Assembly: GCA_963805545.1 (NCBI GenBank)
Contig: CAWDUU010000001.1
Location: forward strand, 331,051-395,050
DNA from: an uncultured Actinomycetes bacterium
GTDB taxonomy: Bacteria > Actinomycetota > Thermoleophilia > Gaiellales > JAICJC01
DNA: 64,000 nucleotides
Direction: 5' to 3'
Of the stretch, positions 27,250-33,445 are shown piece after piece (positions within the stretch are counted from its first letter, which is position 1; each line of letters starts with the position of its first letter). The notes under the pieces were generated by a model. The model was not told the origin of the DNA. It worked only from the letters and a program-made list of their open reading frames with translations, and made no database searches. The translations under genes were made by a program, and so were the position numbers.

Positions 27250-27741
27250 ATGACGAGGTTCTGGAGCAGATGGCTTCACCGGCGCACGCCGAGCGTTGCC
27301 GTCGACGCGCTCCCGGGCCACGAGAGCCTGCGTCGAATGATCGCGGACGGGCATGGGGCCGGCTATGAAGCAGTCGAGTCGCTTGCCGAGGCGCGGGCAC
27401 GGGAGGGCTTCGCGGTTGTCATGCAGGGCGATGACGGCGGGTCGATTTACCTGACCTGTCCAGCCGCTGCAATCCGCTGTGACGAAGCAACGCTCCAGCA
27501 TCTCCTCGAGGACCTCGACGCGCGCTGCTGGAACGACCGTGACTCCGCCCGGCTCTTCTACGAGCGGCTTCCGGTTGGATCCAGGGTGGCGGGTGGCACA
27601 GGCGGTGGCCTCGTCACCGAGGGAGTGTGGCTCCACCCGCGGATCGAGAAACAAGGGCTTCAGGCACAGGTCCAGGCGATCATCGCCGGGGAGCGAGACC
27701 GGATCGACCAGCCCCGCCGCCCCGGTACAGTGATCCCATGA
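27250..27741 (+). CDS. Hypothetical protein
   Basis: GDDGGSIYLTCPA...RLFYERLPVG...GGTGGG...WLHP; ATGA overlap with the next gene. Confidence 0.65.
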   Translation: MTRFWSRWLHRRTPSVAVDALPGHESLRRMIADGHGAGYEAVESLAEARAREGFAVVMQGDDGGSIYLTCPAAAIRCDEATLQHLLEDLDARCWNDRDSARLFYERLPVGSRVAGGTGGGLVTEGVWLHPRIEKQGLQAQVQAIIAGERDRIDQPRRPGTVIP

Positions 27742-29037
27742 AGGCTCCCGAGCGCGCCGACTACTCGATGACCGCCAGCCCCGGCTCGCCGCTGCCCGTC
27801 GCCGTGCGGGCGGAGGGGTGCTGGATCGAGGACGCCGATGGCCGCCGCTACCTGGACGCGTGCGGCGGGGCGATGGTGATGCTGCTCGGCCATTGCCACC
27901 CGCGGGTGGTGGAAGCGCTGCGCGCGCAGGCCGGCGAGCTGACGTTCACGTATCGCTTCTCGTTCCGGAACGAGCCGATGCTCGACCTCGCCGAGCGGAT
28001 CGCGGCGCGCGCGCCGGGCGACCTGGAGTGGTGCTTCTTCAACTCGTCGGGCTCCGAGGCCAACGAGTCGGCGCTGCACCTCGCGGTGCTCTACTGGGAG
28101 CTCCTCGGGAAGGCCGGCAAGGTCGAGTTCCTCTCGCGCGTCACCTCCTACCACGGCTCCACCATGGGCGCGCTCTCGCTCTCCGGCTCCCGCTGGCGGG
28201 CACCGTTCGAGCTGCTCCTTCGCAAGTACGCCGTCGTGCCCAACAGCGATACCGCGGAGGAGGGTGCCGCGGCGCTGGAGGCCGCAATCCTCTCGCGCGG
28301 GGCCGAGCACGTGGCCGCCTTCGTGGTCGAGCCGGTGACCGGCTCGTCGGGCGCGGCTGTGCCGCTTCCGGGCGGCTACCTGGAGGCCGTGCGCGAGGTG
28401 TGCGACCGCCACGAGGTGCTCCTCGTCGCCGACGAGGTCATCACCGCCTTCGGCCGCACCGGGCGCTGGTTCGCGGTCGAGCACTGGAATGCCCTCCCCG
28501 ACGTCATCACCTTCGGCAAGGGGCTGGGCGGCGGCATCGTCCCGCTCTCCGGGATGGTCGCATCGCGGCGGCTGCGTGAGGTCGTCGAGAGCGCGCCCGG
28601 CGGCTTCTCGTACGGCCACACCTTCTCGGGCAACCCGCTCGGCTGCGCCGTCGGCTCGGCCGTCATCGACGTGATCGAGGAGGACGGGCTCGTGGAGGCC
28701 GCCGAGTCGCGCGGGGCGCTCGCTTCGCGCCAGGCTCGAGGAGCTGCGCGGCCGCCACCCGATCGTCCACTCCCTGCGCGGCCGCGGCCTGCTCCAGGGG
28801 GTCGAGCTGCGCGCGCCGGACGGCGCCCGCTTCCCGGCCTCCGCCGGCGTCTGCGGCCGCGTCGCCGCCGCCGCCAAGGACGAGGGCCTCATGATCTACT
28901 CCTGTCCGACGCCGGTCGGCACCGAGCACATGGACGCGCTCATGCTGGCCCCTCCGCTCATCCTGACCGACGCCGAGGTCGACGAGATCGCCGCCCGCCT
29001 CGACACCGCCCTCGCGCGGGTCGAGTCGTCGCTGTAG
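27738..29037 (+). CDS. Class III PLP aminotransferase, frameshift near 28720
   Basis: YLDACGG, SGSEANE, SYHGST, DEVITAFGRTG, FGKGLGGG; the C-terminus (RGRGLL...LAPPL) is in the +1 frame. Confidence 0.88.
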
Positions 29038-29082
29038 GCGGCTGCCAGTCCGTCCGGTCCGGCTTCTAGCCTTGGTCGCCGG

Positions 29083-29964
29083 ATGCCGGTGGTCGCAGTT
29101 CCGATCGCGCAGCTTCTCGGCGCGCTTCTCGCCCTCGCCGCGATCGCGAAGATCCGGCGGTTCGGTGCGTGGCGGGCCGCGCTCGACGGCTACCGCCTCG
29201 TGCCGTGGCGGGGCGTTGTCGCGGTTGCCGTCCCCGCCGCCGAGCTCGCCGTCGCCGGAGGCCTCCTCGCCGGCCTCGCCGTCTCCGCCTGGTGCGCCGC
29301 GGCGCTGCTCTCGGTCTTCACGCTCGTCCTGGCCGCCGAGCTCGCGCGCGGCTCGGCGCCGCCCGCATGCGCGTGCCTGCCGTGGTCGGGCCCCCCGGGC
29401 CGCCTGACGCTCGTCCGGAACGCCGTCCTCGTCGCCGCGGCGCTCGCCGCCGCCGAGGGCGCGACACCTCGCCTCGGGCGCGGATTCTGGGAGGCGTCCT
29501 ACGCCGTCCTCTGGCTGGCCGTCGCCGGGCTCGTGGTGCTCGTGCTCTCGCTCTACCGGCAGGTGGGCGTCCTGCACCTGCGGCTGGGGCCGCGCGGGGC
29601 GCTCGAGGAGGAGGGCGAGGGGCCCGAGCTCGGCGCGGCGATCGACCACCCGGCGGTGCCCGCGGGAAGGGCGGCGCTGGTCGCGTTCACGTCGGCCGGC
29701 TGCCCTGTGTGCCATCAGATCGTGCCGGGCCTGCGCGTGCTCGAGCGCGATCCGGCGCTTCGGGTCGTCCACGCCGCCTACGAGGACGCGGAGGGGCCGG
29801 AGCTGCACGCCGCCTTCGACGTCCCGGGGACGCCGTACGCGGTGTACCTCGACGCGGCAAGCGTCGTTCGGGCCAAGGGCACCGTGAACACGCTCGAGCA
29901 GCTCGAGAGCCTGGTCGCCGCCGGCGGCAGCCGCGCCCAGGAGGCGGTCGGCGATGTGGCGTGA
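29083..29964 (+). CDS. MauE-MauD fusion (methylamine-utilisation membrane domain + thioredoxin fold)
   Basis: AIAKIR...AELAVA...ACAC; LYRQVGVLHLRLGPRGAL...GP; CPVC; PYAV...AKGTVNTLEQLESL. Confidence 0.88.
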   Translation: MPVVAVPIAQLLGALLALAAIAKIRRFGAWRAALDGYRLVPWRGVVAVAVPAAELAVAGGLLAGLAVSAWCAAALLSVFTLVLAAELARGSAPPACACLPWSGPPGRLTLVRNAVLVAAALAAAEGATPRLGRGFWEASYAVLWLAVAGLVVLVLSLYRQVGVLHLRLGPRGALEEEGEGPELGAAIDHPAVPAGRAALVAFTSAGCPVCHQIVPGLRVLERDPALRVVHAAYEDAEGPELHAAFDVPGTPYAVYLDAASVVRAKGTVNTLEQLESLVAAGGSRAQEAVGDVA

Positions 29965-30539
29965 CGGCGAGGACATGGCCCGCGACGTCGCCTCCCGGCA
30001 CAGCCGCTCCGGGTTCCTGAGCCGGATCGGCGCGCCGATCATCGCGTGGCTGGCCGGGCCGCTCGCCGGCGCGTCGTCGCTGGGGCCCGAGAGCACCCGC
30101 TACTACGGCTTCTGCGGCCACACGTTCACCACCAAGCCGTGCCCGCACCCGTTCCCGAAGCTGCCCCGCATCGACCGCCACGGGTATCCGCTGCGGCCGT
30201 CCGACGGGCATCCGGTCGACAACCTCGGCCGGCCCGTCGACGCGTCGGGGTTCGCGCTCGACAGCGCCGGCAACCGCCGCGTCGGGCCCGACGGGCGAAC
30301 CGGTGCCGCGCGCGCCGCGCACGCGCCCCTGCCAGGACTGGGTGCCGGACATCTACGGCTTCCACACCCGCTTCGACGGCGCCTGGTACCGCTGCTGCAA
30401 CAACCAGATCAGAAAGCTGGTCGACTGCTGCGCCCACCACAACCGCCGTATCAACGGCGACGCGGCGCTGGTCGGCTACTGCTTCCACGGCCGCAAGGTG
30501 TTCTGCGTCCTCTACTACGACACGAAGGTGCCGTGCTGA
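29954..30539 (+). CDS. Cys-rich MauA-like (amine dehydrogenase small subunit-like) exported protein, frameshift at ~30294
   Basis: Tat-like SRSGFL leader; 10 Cys; GAWYRCC...LVDCC...GYCF...VFC. Removing one G from GACGGGCGAA joins the two ORFs. Confidence 0.7.
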
Positions 30540-32008
30540 GGCGGCTCGCGGCGGCGGCCGGCGCGGGCGGCGCGGGCCTGGCGCTCGGCGTCGGGGTCGC
30601 GCCCGATCCCGGAGCGGCGATCGCCGCCTGCGCGCTCCTCGCGGGGGTGTCCGGCGCCTGGTCGCCCTGAGGGCTGGCCGTGGCCGAGACGGTCGCCCCC
30701 GTCGTGCACGGGGTGAGGAGATGGCTGGTGGCGGTGGCGGCGTTCGCGATGGGATCCGTCGCCGCGGGTGCGGCCCTGGGCTGGGGCGTCGGCTGGGCGG
30801 CCGGGCGGGCCGGCGGCGGAGGCGCGCACGGCGCCTGGGCGGCCGCGGGCATCGCAGCGGCCTACGCCGCCCGCGAGGCAGGGCTCCTGCGCCTGCCGGT
30901 GCCGCAGCTTCGCCGCCAGGTGCCCCAGCGCTGGCGCGAGGTGCTGCCGCTGCCGGCGACCGCGTTCCTCTACGGCGCCGGCCTCGGCATCGGATTCGTC
31001 ACCTACGTGCCGGTGGCGACGCTCGTGGCGGTGACCGCGGCGATCGCACTCGCCGACCCCGGCGCCGGGATGGCCGCCCTCGCGGCGTTCGGGGCCGGGC
31101 GCGCGGCCGTCCTCGTCGCGGCCACGGCCGGCCTTCACGACTGGGACGAGGCGGCCGACCGCTTCGAGCACGCCGGGAGCTGGCTGCGGGAGCGGGGCGG
31201 GGCGCTCCGCACGGCCAACGCCGGCGCCATGGCCGCGCTGGCGGGCGTGCTCGCCGCCACGGCGACGCCGGCGGCGGCGGCCGCCGCGGTGCAGATCGAC
31301 CTCGGCTCGCGCCACGTCGCCGACCCGTCCGCCGGGCCGGCCGGCGTGCTGGCGTGGGATCAGGTCGCGGGCGGCGTCGTGCAGGGCAGGCTGCGCGTGA
31401 ACGGCGTCGTGAACGACCTTCCCGGAAAGACGCCCGACGTCGACGGCGCCCGGGTCGTCGTCGACACCGGCTCCGCGTTCCAGATCATCGACACGGGGAC
31501 GCTCGCCGTCATGCGCACCCTCCAGCTCAAGGGCACCGAGCCGGCGCTCTTCGACCACTGGCTGGTCTACCGGCGGGTCACCGGCAGGCGGCGGCTCATC
31601 CTCTTCGACCTGGGGACGAACCAGTCGAAGGTGATCGCAAGGGTCAAGATGCGAAGCGACCTGGGCGAGCCCGACATCTCGGGCAGGCGGGTCGTCTACT
31701 CGGTGACCGGCCACGGACGCAGCTCCATCCGGCTCTACCGCATCGACCTGGGAGTCACGAAGCGGATCGCGCAGACGCCGATCTGGTCGTACAGCCACGT
31801 GTCCGTCAGCGGCGACACCGTGGTGTACGTGCGCCAGGCATCGAGCGGCGCAGCCGTGTGGCGGCTCCACCTGCCGAGCGGCCGGGTGGCGCGCGTCCAC
31901 CGCGTCGCCGGCGGCACCGGACACGCGCTCTGGGAGACGGCCACGAACGGCTCGTCCATCTGGTTCACGGTCTACACCAGGTCGCAGTCGCTCATCTGGC
32001 ATGCTTGA
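30533..32008 (+). CDS. MauF homologue with in-frame UGA (putative Sec, WSPUG) fused to a C-terminal beta-propeller
   Basis: GTG 30533 overlaps the upstream stop; GAWSP-TGA(30668-30670)-GL; RRQVP, FLYGAGLGIGFVTYV; repeated P-x-x-x-G-x-x-VVY blades. Confidence 0.75.
30693..30716 (+). promoter_or_regulatory. Putative bacterial SECIS hairpin
   Basis: TCGC-C-CCCGT [CGTGC] ACGGG-GTGA: 9 bp with one bulge; loop begins 33 nt after the UGA and has G at position 2. Confidence 0.55.
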
Positions 32009-32011
32009 GGC

Positions 32012-33445
32012 GTGGCAACCGCGCCTCCGACCTCGGGCGAGCTGCGCGCCGCCCTCGAGCAGGCCGCCGACTGGTGCGCGTCGTACCTCGACCGGGTCGG
32101 CGACCTGCCCGTGCTGGCCCGGGTCGAGCCGGGCGAGATCGCGGCTGCCCTGCCCGAGCACGCGCCGGTGGCGGGCGAGCCGCTGGCCGACATCCTGGCC
32201 GACGTCGACCGCGTCCTGATCCCCGGCATCACGCACTGGAACCACCCGGGCTTCATGGCCTACTTCGGGATCTCCGGCTCGCCGCCGGGCATCCTCGGCG
32301 AGACGGTGGCGGCCGCGCTCAACGTGAACGCGATGCTGTGGCGCACGTCGCCGGCCGCGACCGAGCTCGAGCAGCGGGTGCTGCGCTGGGTCGCCGAGCT
32401 GACCGGCCTTCCGGCCGGCTGGTTCGGCGAGATCACCGACACGGCGTCGGCCTCGACGATGTACGCGCTCGCCGCCGCCCGCGAGGCGGCCGGGCTCGAC
32501 ATCCGCACCCGCGGGATGGCCGGCCGGGCCGACCTGCCGCCGCTTCGCATGTACACGTCCGACCAGGCCCACTCGTCGGTCGAGAAGGCCTGCATCGCGC
32601 TCGGGATCGGCCAGGAGGGGCTGTGCAAGATCCCGTCCGACGCCGCCTTCCGGATGCGGGCCGACCTGCTGGCCGAGGCCGTCGCCGCCGACGTCGCCGC
32701 GGGCGTGCGGCCGCTCGCGGTCGTGGCCACGGTCGGGACGACCTCGACGACGAGCATCGACCCCGTCCCCGAGATCGCCGACGTGTGCGCCCGCCACGGC
32801 ATGTGGCTGCACGTCGACGCCGCCTACGGCGGCTCCGCGGCGGTCGTGCCCGAGATGCGCCACGTCCTGGCCGGGTGCGAGCGGGCCGACTCGGTCGTCG
32901 TGAACCCGCACAAGTGGCTCTTCACGCCGGTCGACTGCAGCCTGCTCTACACGGCCCGGCCCGCCGACCTGAAGGCGGCGTTCTCGCTCGTCCCCGCCTA
33001 CCTGGAGACGCCGGAGGACGGCGGCGTCGTGAACCTCATGGACTACGGACTCTCGCTCGGCCGCCGCTTCCGCGCGCTCAAGCTGTGGATGGTGATCCGG
33101 GCCTACGGCGCCGAGGGGCTCGCCGCGCTCATCTCGGGCCATATCGAGCTCGCCCGGCGGCTGGCGGCCGCGATCGAGGCGGAGCCGGGCTGGGAGCTGC
33201 TCGCCCCGGTGCCGTTCTCGACCGTCTGCTTCCGCCGCCACCCGGACGGGGTCGACGACGAGGCGGAGCTGCGCCGCCTGAACGAGGCGATCATCGAGCA
33301 CGTGAACGCCGACGGCCGGGCGTTCGTCTCGCACACCGACCTCGGCGGGCGCCACGCGATCCGGGTGGCGATCGGCAACATGGCGACGACCGCCGAGCAC
33401 GTCGACACGGCCTGGGAGCTCATGCGCGAGGCCGTCGCCGGCTGA
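32012..33445 (+). CDS. Group II PLP decarboxylase, aromatic-L-amino-acid decarboxylase-like
   Basis: PGITHWNHPGFMAYF, SPAATELE, SDQAHSS, HVDAAYGG, NPHKW, GRRFRALKLW. Confidence 0.92.
   Translation: MATAPPTSGELRAALEQAADWCASYLDRVGDLPVLARVEPGEIAAALPEHAPVAGEPLADILADVDRVLIPGITHWNHPGFMAYFGISGSPPGILGETVAAALNVNAMLWRTSPAATELEQRVLRWVAELTGLPAGWFGEITDTASASTMYALAAAREAAGLDIRTRGMAGRADLPPLRMYTSDQAHSSVEKACIALGIGQEGLCKIPSDAAFRMRADLLAEAVAADVAAGVRPLAVVATVGTTSTTSIDPVPEIADVCARHGMWLHVDAAYGGSAAVVPEMRHVLAGCERADSVVVNPHKWLFTPVDCSLLYTARPADLKAAFSLVPAYLETPEDGGVVNLMDYGLSLGRRFRALKLWMVIRAYGAEGLAALISGHIELARRLAAAIEAEPGWELLAPVPFSTVCFRRHPDGVDDEAELRRLNEAIIEHVNADGRAFVSHTDLGGRHAIRVAIGNMATTAEHVDTAWELMREAVAG

Follow-up and report, generated by a model that had tools for sequence, protein, structure and literature searches.

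Does an in-frame UGA codon within a MauF-like gene of an uncultured member of the Gaiellales terminate translation, or does it specify selenocysteine (Sec)? The codon lies at positions 30668-30670 of a 64,000-nucleotide stretch of contig CAWDUU010000001.1 (the whole stretch is referred to here as the window, and positions are counted from its first letter), between a short upstream coding segment and a long open reading frame (ORF). The UGA is very probably decoded as Sec, because it pairs with Cys codons in related loci, both of its flanks are translated, a downstream hairpin is under selection at the RNA level and fits the bacterial selenocysteine insertion sequence (bSECIS) model, and the encoded protein is homologous to MauF; the gene also belongs to a conserved three-gene neighbourhood. 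The features on which this reading depends are the following.

30533-32008, plus strand: candidate MauF-like selenoprotein gene of 491 codons with Sec at codon 46 (translation, profile of G+C content at third codon positions [GC3], start homologous to that of Cys-containing forms)
30533-30667, plus strand: N-terminal 45 codons with the first membrane helix, lost in annotation (codon-position entropy, conserved AGVSGAWSP)
30668-30670, plus strand: proposed Sec codon UGA in GAWSP-U-G (aligned codon in 160 loci; the column matches the Cys of TWSPCG in MauF)
30697-30713, plus strand: core SECIS-like hairpin with arms 30697-30702 and 30708-30713 and loop CGUGC at 30703-30707, extending with a bulge to 30693-30716

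Translation of the window yields a single plus-strand frame from GTG 30533-30535 to TGA 32006-32008 (491 codons plus stop), and the only break in it is TGA 30668-30670, in the context ...AGVSGAWSP*GLAVAET; the residues after the break read ...AGVSGAWSP*GLAVAETVAPVVHG.... On either side of this TGA, in the frame of GTG 30533, GC3 is 0.93-0.95, so both flanks bear the coding signature of a 73% G+C genome. Gene callers report only 30680-32008 (442 aa), and the full gene is missed in annotation because the downstream piece is listed in a mechanical ORF list as a 442-aa ORF starting from GTG 30680. A scan of the window for further in-frame TGAs with coding signal on both sides returned only the ordinary stop at 32006, and its filter on G+C content at second codon positions also overlooked the real site, which makes the scan a weak one.

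In the sequence GTGCTGA, the start of the full frame (GTG 30533) and the stop of the gene before it overlap, and the resulting V-L start (GTG-CTG) corresponds to the annotated start of the full-length Cys forms P0050, P0052, and P0059. Among 19 TGA-type sequences, entropy over the 22 codons preceding the UGA amounts to 0.48 bits at the first codon position, 0.39 bits at the second, and 1.07 bits at the third; third positions are variable in all 22 codons and second positions in 12, and the AGVSGAWSP motif ahead of the TGA is conserved. Because the third codon position varies most and the start is shared with the Cys forms, the upstream 45 codons can be regarded as translated, and by these substitution patterns the segment evidently evolves as a translated, constrained peptide.

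A homologue search over roughly 5.8 billion proteins retrieved about 45 close-to-moderate homologues (46-98% identity). The full-length close homologues are 438-442 aa long and start with MAETVAPVVHG or MVETIVPVVHG, with the truncation immediately past the site of the window's TGA. Distant homologues of 476-519 aa (28-35% identity over the full length) are complete and begin with (M/V)L...AG(V/L)TGAWSPCGFSMVET. DNA was then compared for 160 loci, namely, 79 genome loci from metagenome-assembled genomes (MAGs) of Gaiellales, Thermoleophilia, and Solirubrobacterales, 80 metagenome loci, and the window. The codon aligned with 30668-30670 is TGA in 39 loci and a Cys codon in 118 (TGC in 106, TGT in 12), and in none of the 160 is it TAA or TAG. 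The column concerned holds the sole Cys that is invariant across the family and in the MauF of Paracoccus denitrificans. Terminal stops of 37 TGA-type genes comprise 28 TGA, 8 TAG, and 1 TAA, with switches within clades, and the 25 long genes of the window end in TAG (12) or TGA (13). The recoding appears to be specific to UGA, since the terminal stops of the same genes vary while the codon at the site is never TAA or TAG.

Neighbour joining of 144 full-length sequences places the TGA forms in one clade that requires a single change under Fitch parsimony. The clade is deep, e.g., its L038/L047/L097 branch is 33-35% identical to the window protein, and by tree topology the Sec forms evidently are monophyletic, with a single deep origin. 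The TGA-bearing contigs stem from unrelated projects, samples, assemblers, and platforms (MEGAHIT-style k141 contigs, MFD MAG contigs, and JGI metagenomes), and the assemblies include CAWHWC01, CAWGEC01, CAVPLP01, CAVPWG01, CAWEIZ01, JAICKX01, DATIOK01, JBBQUW01, and JAEMRL01. Chance and sequencing error are excluded because the same TGA, together with a hairpin at the same position, is found in 39 of 39 independently assembled clade members.

A divergent TGA form was also seen in an Actinomycetota MAG (DASQDO01, locus L077:1251), reading ISTLFSP*GLSMAETITPVVHG, with F for W ahead of SP; its stem has 8 bp (CCCCCGUG / CACGGGGG) and its loop is GUC. The contig is too short for placement in the tree, and this form may widen the Sec clade.

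Downstream of the UGA, the core of the hairpin consists of six pairs (30702-30708, 30701-30709, 30700-30710, 30699-30711, 30698-30712, and 30697-30713), to which three outer pairs are added beyond the bulged C30696 (30695-30714, a G·U pair, 30694-30715, and 30693-30716), giving 9 bp in all. The spacing between UGA and loop is 32 nt, i.e., the first base of the loop is the 33rd nucleotide past the UGA, and the energies are -8.9 kcal/mol for the core and -11.7 kcal/mol for the local minimum free energy (MFE). The 6-bp helix occurs in identical register in all 39 TGA forms, with six pairs in 29 and five in 10, and the local MFE is -7.5 kcal/mol or lower in 38 of the 39. In an alignment of 19 sequences, 98% of the cells of the core helix pair and two compensatory pairs are present, namely, a C-G pair turned U-A at the helix base and a loop-closing U-A pair turned C-G; the latter goes along with an amino-acid change from PVVHG to PA(V/G)CG. 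The covariation score of the core helix was matched by none of 500 shuffles, and all slid registers collapse. RNAalifold independently predicted the core helix (30697-30702 with 30708-30713) plus a weaker helix upstream of it:

30680-30696, plus strand: weaker first helix, 30680-30684 with 30692-30696 (RNAalifold consensus, 2 pairs with double changes)

In single-sequence folds of the region of this first helix, every clade forms a stronger hairpin of its own, in registers that differ between clades, and the first hairpin (30676-30695 region) was set aside as a SECIS candidate, being less convincing than the second.

The third codon positions provide the strongest line of evidence. In 33 complete TGA-type genes, four-fold-degenerate codons with amino-acid conservation of 90% or more were compared: the mean third-position entropy is 0.97 bits upstream of the TGA (8 codons) and 1.23 bits in the rest of the gene (40 codons, range 0.71-1.93), and each of the three stem codons, for Pro, Val, and Gly, has 0.00 bits. 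Because the third positions of these conserved codons are invariant in the stem, selection there bears on the RNA and not on the protein; the synonymous sites of the stem are in effect frozen.

According to the bSECIS model, the loop has 3-9 nt, the upper stem 4-16 bp, the spacing is 16-37 nt, and the MFE is -7.5 kcal/mol or lower, with a G within the first two loop bases that is usually followed by G or U (PMC13188914). With its 5-nt loop CGUGC, 6-bp core stem, and spacing of 32 nt, the window hairpin satisfies all published constraints, as judged with our own strict, ungapped implementation of the model and not with bSECISearch. This strict test was passed by 31 of the 39 Sec forms, nearly all at spacing 32, vs 27 of the 118 Cys forms, at scattered positions. 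The mere presence of a hairpin is unremarkable in DNA of 73% G+C, and the discrimination comes from conservation; MFE was dropped as a discriminator, as Cys forms fold as strongly as Sec forms. All of the comparative tests bear out the central reading that an initial annotation of this DNA had proposed from the window alone, namely, Sec at the conserved Cys of a MauF homologue with a SECIS-like hairpin. The one frame broken solely by the TGA agrees with the translation, the 9-bp bulged hairpin at 30693-30716 with its loop from the 33rd nucleotide is present as described, and the alternation of TGA with TGC or TGT among homologues, which that annotation had suggested checking along with hairpin conservation, is strict and confined to one column (39 TGA vs 118 TGC/TGT). 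Its description of the hairpin as SECIS-like likewise agrees with the model fit, the covariation, and the register kept in 39 of 39 forms.

These data have to be weighed against other ways of explaining the codon. In a gene fission, the UGA would be a true stop that releases a 45-residue single-helix peptide ending in ...WSP, and translation would reinitiate 9 nt on at GTG 30680 (replaced by ATG in other clades), a restart that the initial annotation had itself raised, resulting in a two-piece MauF-like protein without the Cys. Such a restart is mechanistically possible, as UGA-GG yields the Shine-Dalgarno sequence GAGG (30669-30672) 7 nt before the in-frame GTG 30680 or ATG, and a V or M codon stands in frame at this place in all 39 TGA forms. 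However, the M/V at position +4 is a residue of the family at large: Cys forms have it too (CGFSMVET), with A replacing it in some, and its origin is therefore not that of a start codon. A fission would leave both pieces translated, and the upstream codon-position entropies fit it as well; it is also what every gene caller chose. The break, though, coincides exactly with the one Cys that never varies in the family (118 of 118 Cys forms, and MauF), and its codon is one mutation away from TGC; if the stop served termination only, drift to TAG would be expected, as is seen at the gene ends; and fission would leave unexplained a hairpin that is kept in register, with its synonymous sites frozen, 17-33 nt inside the supposed downstream ORF. 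We consider fission unlikely. Less probable still is read-through of the UGA with a residue other than Sec, whether by near-cognate insertion of Trp, Cys, or Arg, or by insertion of Cys via the Sec pathway when selenium is scarce. The evidence does speak to translated flanks and a selected RNA element and not to the identity of the inserted residue, but the element conforms to the bSECIS model of the SelB type, a UGA aligned with a catalytic-type Cys is the mark of Sec and not of leaky read-through, and elsewhere in the window UGA serves as a normal stop, ending 13 of 25 long genes.

That the true codon is TGC, misread by sequencing or assembly, or that the gene is a pseudogene has a negligible probability, and the codon alignment of related loci effectively refutes it: 38 further loci, obtained from independent samples with different assemblers and platforms, carry this TGA too, and frames are intact with purifying selection on both flanks across deep divergence. 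What speaks for an error is that the window contains two frameshifts relative to all homologues within 2.5 kb of the site, so its base accuracy is imperfect; these nearby errors are homopolymer indels and not substitutions. One is an extra base in GGGCCC at 30284-30289, relative to all 79 genome homologues, due to which the small-protein gene upstream needs a +1 shift in the window only; it is probably an assembly indel, or else marks a very recent pseudogene. The other is located in the class-III aminotransferase gene (27627-29069), which changes frame near 28715, whereas its homologues in L003 and L006 run in a single frame; its Pfam match accordingly ends at profile position 323 of 403. Both look like homopolymer indel errors, and the conclusion on the TGA is unaffected by them. 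Besides the Shine-Dalgarno sequence mentioned above, some further observations weigh against Sec, including these indels so close to the site in the window itself. No Rfam model matches the site or the entire window, and the loop is close to the far limit of the permitted spacing. Searches with E. coli SelA, SelB, and SelD (tblastn) and with ARAGORN found no selA, selB, selD, or tRNA-Sec in the window or in the roughly 160 loci, a result that covers only about 2 Mb around this gene. A search of plasmids with SelD retrieved only distant Actinomycetes, such as Rhodococcus and Nonomuraea, of no use as bait for Gaiellales. Finally, no literature on Sec in Gaiellales, Thermoleophilia, or Conexibacter was found.

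Which protein would carry this Sec? The Paracoccus denitrificans PD1222 mau cluster was retrieved via its MauD, and its MauF (WP_011750949.1) reads ...STWSPCG..., ...PQRRAQVP..., ...GLYGLSLGLDYLTYV.... Aligned with hhalign, the family profile matches MauF with a probability of 98.9% (E 2.4e-17, 177 columns, 29% identity), and the Sec/Cys column is set on the cysteine of WSPCG, in accordance with the original assignment of the UGA to the conserved Cys of a MauF homologue. That assignment had also named three motifs, of which TWSPCG and LYG..LG..TYV are real, and the middle one reads RRAQVP in P. denitrificans MauF and not RRQVP. The MauF-like protein had no match in Pfam or NCBIfam, even at E values up to 5-10 and for 19 family members. 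Authentic MauF is itself without any Pfam or NCBIfam model, so direct comparison is the only test of membership, and by that comparison the membrane domain evidently is a true MauF homologue. A tblastn search of plasmids with the membrane domain returned no match, probably due to low-complexity masking. Two further elements of the protein can be placed:

30902-30925, plus strand: PQLRRQVP motif, invariant in the family (alignments A1 and A6), with PQRRAQVP as its MauF counterpart (hhalign)
31280-32005, plus strand: C-terminal β-propeller domain (AlphaFold2 model of P0047, Foldseek matches, weak TolB and PQQ_2 profile matches)

The AlphaFold2 model of P0047, a Cys-form homologue, has a mean predicted local distance difference test (pLDDT) score of 84; it is helical up to residue 223 and all-β from about residue 226, where pLDDT exceeds 90. 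The SPCG motif is positioned at the break between helices 2-18 and 21-30, and Foldseek matched the model to BamB, TolB, and WD40 propellers. The protein is thus more than a plain MauF: its MauF-like membrane domain carries a fused β-propeller of about 240 aa.

Cys-type MauF-like proteins (L016-L079) have, in the following helix, another Cys that is conserved (..ACATF.., alignment A1 columns ~60-75), a site at which all Sec-type proteins (window 30725-30745) have Ala or Val. In the Sec branch L038/L047, position +13 is instead Cys (PAVCG) and not the His of other sequences (PVVHG, GPTGHTGG). By position, the pattern of second and +13 cysteines hints at a partner residue for the Sec/Cys.

The MauF-like gene is preceded by two genes that accompany it in Sec-type and Cys-type loci alike:

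29083-29964, plus strand: MauE-MauD fusion, thioredoxin-like, with CPVC (Pfam MauE E=7e-18; NCBIfam MauD E=1e-19, below the cut-off of that model)
29954-30539, plus strand: small Cys-rich protein with a twin-arginine translocation (Tat) signal, the presumed client (frame-shifted in the window, a one-frame gene in 79 genome loci)

The MauE-MauD fusion adjoins the MauF-like gene in 69 of the 79 genome loci (16 of 18 Sec-type and 53 of 61 Cys-type), and the small-protein gene always lies between the fusion and the MauF-propeller gene. The aminotransferase and the pyridoxal phosphate (PLP)-dependent decarboxylase that flank the triad are syntenic with it within Gaiellales only. The TGA stop of the MauF-like gene is followed 3 nt on, in the same frame, by the GTG of the decarboxylase (32012-33445; both codons within 32006-32014), a tight coupling that is kept in 14 of 18 Sec-type genome loci and lies outside the neighbourhood of the wider family. 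A methylamine dehydrogenase cluster (mauB for the heavy chain, mauA, mauG, amicyanin) is not present at the locus, where the neighbours are the aminotransferase, the PLP-dependent decarboxylase, and others.

The small protein has a Tat-type signal, SR(S/R)GFL, and 10 invariant Cys. Its family (window 29954-30539; L001:1441-2001) is characterised by a length of about 190 aa and by invariant WYRCC, DCC, RINGD, GYC, and FCV motifs, and the approximately 950 relatives in databases are all unnamed or named for the Tat signal only. The initial annotation had regarded it as a Mau-like subunit, and this did not hold up: the protein is Mau-like by gene position only. It has no Pfam, NCBIfam, or PDB sequence match, including none to TIGR02659 or PF02975, and BLASTP and hhalign align it with MauA over the signal peptide only. 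Foldseek with its AlphaFold model, of modest quality (pLDDT 66), gives no significant structural neighbour and no methylamine dehydrogenase light chain. With BLASTP, hhalign, PDB profile search, and AlphaFold plus Foldseek all negative, identification as a MauA light chain with a tryptophan tryptophylquinone cofactor was rejected, and the small protein may be a new cross-linked or cofactor-bearing extracytoplasmic protein.

Taken together, the locus would function as follows. The ribosome would start at GTG 30533 in translational coupling to the stop of the upstream small-protein gene, and the UGA would be read through with Sec-tRNA(Sec) brought by SelB, which the conserved stem-loop would recruit, its apical loop C-G-U-G-C beginning 33 nt past the UGA. 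The predicted product has 491 residues, with a polytopic membrane domain of the MauF type and, after it, an extracytoplasmic β-propeller. At the helix break of the first membrane segment, Sec would take the place of the single invariant Cys of the MauF family (W-S-P-C/U-G), where the Sec/Cys residue may be the redox or nucleophilic centre. It might engage in (seleno)sulfide exchange with the thioredoxin-like MauE-MauD partner and/or with the 10-Cys Tat-exported small protein, an exchange that would serve the oxidative maturation of the latter, and Sec would be a more reactive version of the same chemistry. Sec insertion itself, SelB binding, membrane topology, and the redox role, described initially as a membrane redox relay, are what we infer from these observations.

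The 2026 review of the prokaryotic selenoproteome tabulates well over a hundred families with NCBIfam models (PMC13188914). The terms 'Mau', 'methylamine', and 'cytochrome c biogenesis' do not occur in its text, which has no CcdA/DsbD selenoprotein entry besides TsoB; the nearest entries are the rhodanese/DsbD-fusion-like TsoB (NF045694) and a few transporters (PMC13188914). Apart from this review, the literature searches on Sec in Gaiellales, Thermoleophilia, or Conexibacter and on Sec-MauE, Sec-CcdA, or Sec-DsbD returned nothing relevant, and none of the NCBIfam selenoprotein models is matched by the window protein or its Cys homologue. The initial statement that no characterised Sec-containing MauF was known to its author agrees with this, as no such family is present in the 2026 catalogue (PMC13188914) or NCBIfam. 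The nearest precedent found comes from Rubrobacter xylanophilus, for which 5 selenoproteins are given in an entry under Actinobacteria (PMC1794560), and an annotation artefact of the same kind is known from mycobacterial fdhA/fdoG, split likewise at the Sec-UGA (PMC13449736). Comparison of sequences gives good support to a new selenoprotein family within a known type of feature, and not to a new mechanism.

The candidate family adds to the 2026 catalogue and to NCBIfam a member that both lack, and all database versions of it are cut at the UGA, so that entries for the Sec-type family are without the first membrane helix and the active residue. To our knowledge, MauF has no established biochemical function, and we know of no study in which its role as a maturation factor has been defined. 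Replacement of Cys by Sec at its one invariant Cys would be strong indirect evidence of redox or nucleophilic chemistry at that residue, and provides a testable hypothesis for MauF. The client indicated by the locus is an extracytoplasmic, Cys-rich protein that is as yet uncharacterised. We would give even odds to the broader proposition that a soil clade of Gaiellales/Thermoleophilia places Sec in the MauF-type membrane helix of a widespread, uncharacterised three-gene system. If true, MauF proteins in general would have their catalytic redox centre at the WSPCG residue, Sec decoding would exist in the Gaiellales, abundant and almost uncultured soil Actinomycetota for which we found no report of it, and the three-gene system would mature an unknown cross-linked or quinone-type cofactor protein outside the cell.

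Comparison with known systems places the protein as follows. A Pro-Cys motif at a break in the first membrane helix is shared with DsbD/CcdA; the best local hhalign stretch sets GVSGAWSPCG over GIGIAFTPC(163)V of E. coli DsbD, in the region of Cys163 of the first transmembrane helix (TM1), with a non-significant probability of 1.8%. JGI labels some homologues 'CcdA', and 1 of 19 members matches Pfam DsbD_2 (PF13386) at E = 0.015. DsbD/CcdA proteins differ in having two defining membrane cysteines (TM1 and TM4), vs one invariant Cys/Sec column here (A1, A6), and the family has no PDB sequence match; the sequence link to DsbD/CcdA is not significant and suggestive only. With TsoB, YeeE/YedE (GUxSG), the SaoP permease, and the SO_0444 efflux transporter, all of them bacterial and thiol- or chalcogen-handling, the protein shares a predicted Sec in or next to membrane segments and a SECIS within the coding sequence (PMC13188914), whereas these belong to other protein families. 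The Cys MauF-propeller proteins of Solirubrobacterales/Thermoleophilia (e.g., P0046-P0059, L016-L079) share the architecture, the three-gene neighbourhood, and the start-codon overlap, with 28-35% identity over the full length; they differ by TGC/TGT at the site, the lack of a position-conserved hairpin, a T for S two residues ahead of GAW, and the second conserved Cys, absent from Sec forms. P. denitrificans MauF, encoded in the mauRFBEDACJGMN cluster, has (T/G)WSP(C/U)G, PQ.RR.QVP, LYG..LG....TYV, and F..GR in common with the window protein, together with adjoining mauE and mauD homologues and the single conserved Cys. However, MauF is a stand-alone protein of 277 aa from a Pseudomonadota host, whereas the window protein, of Actinomycetota origin, has 491 aa with an added C-terminal β-propeller, its Sec clade carries the predicted Sec where MauF has Cys, and its locus, unlike a methylamine dehydrogenase cluster, has MauE and MauD fused and no adjacent mauB, mauG, or amicyanin.

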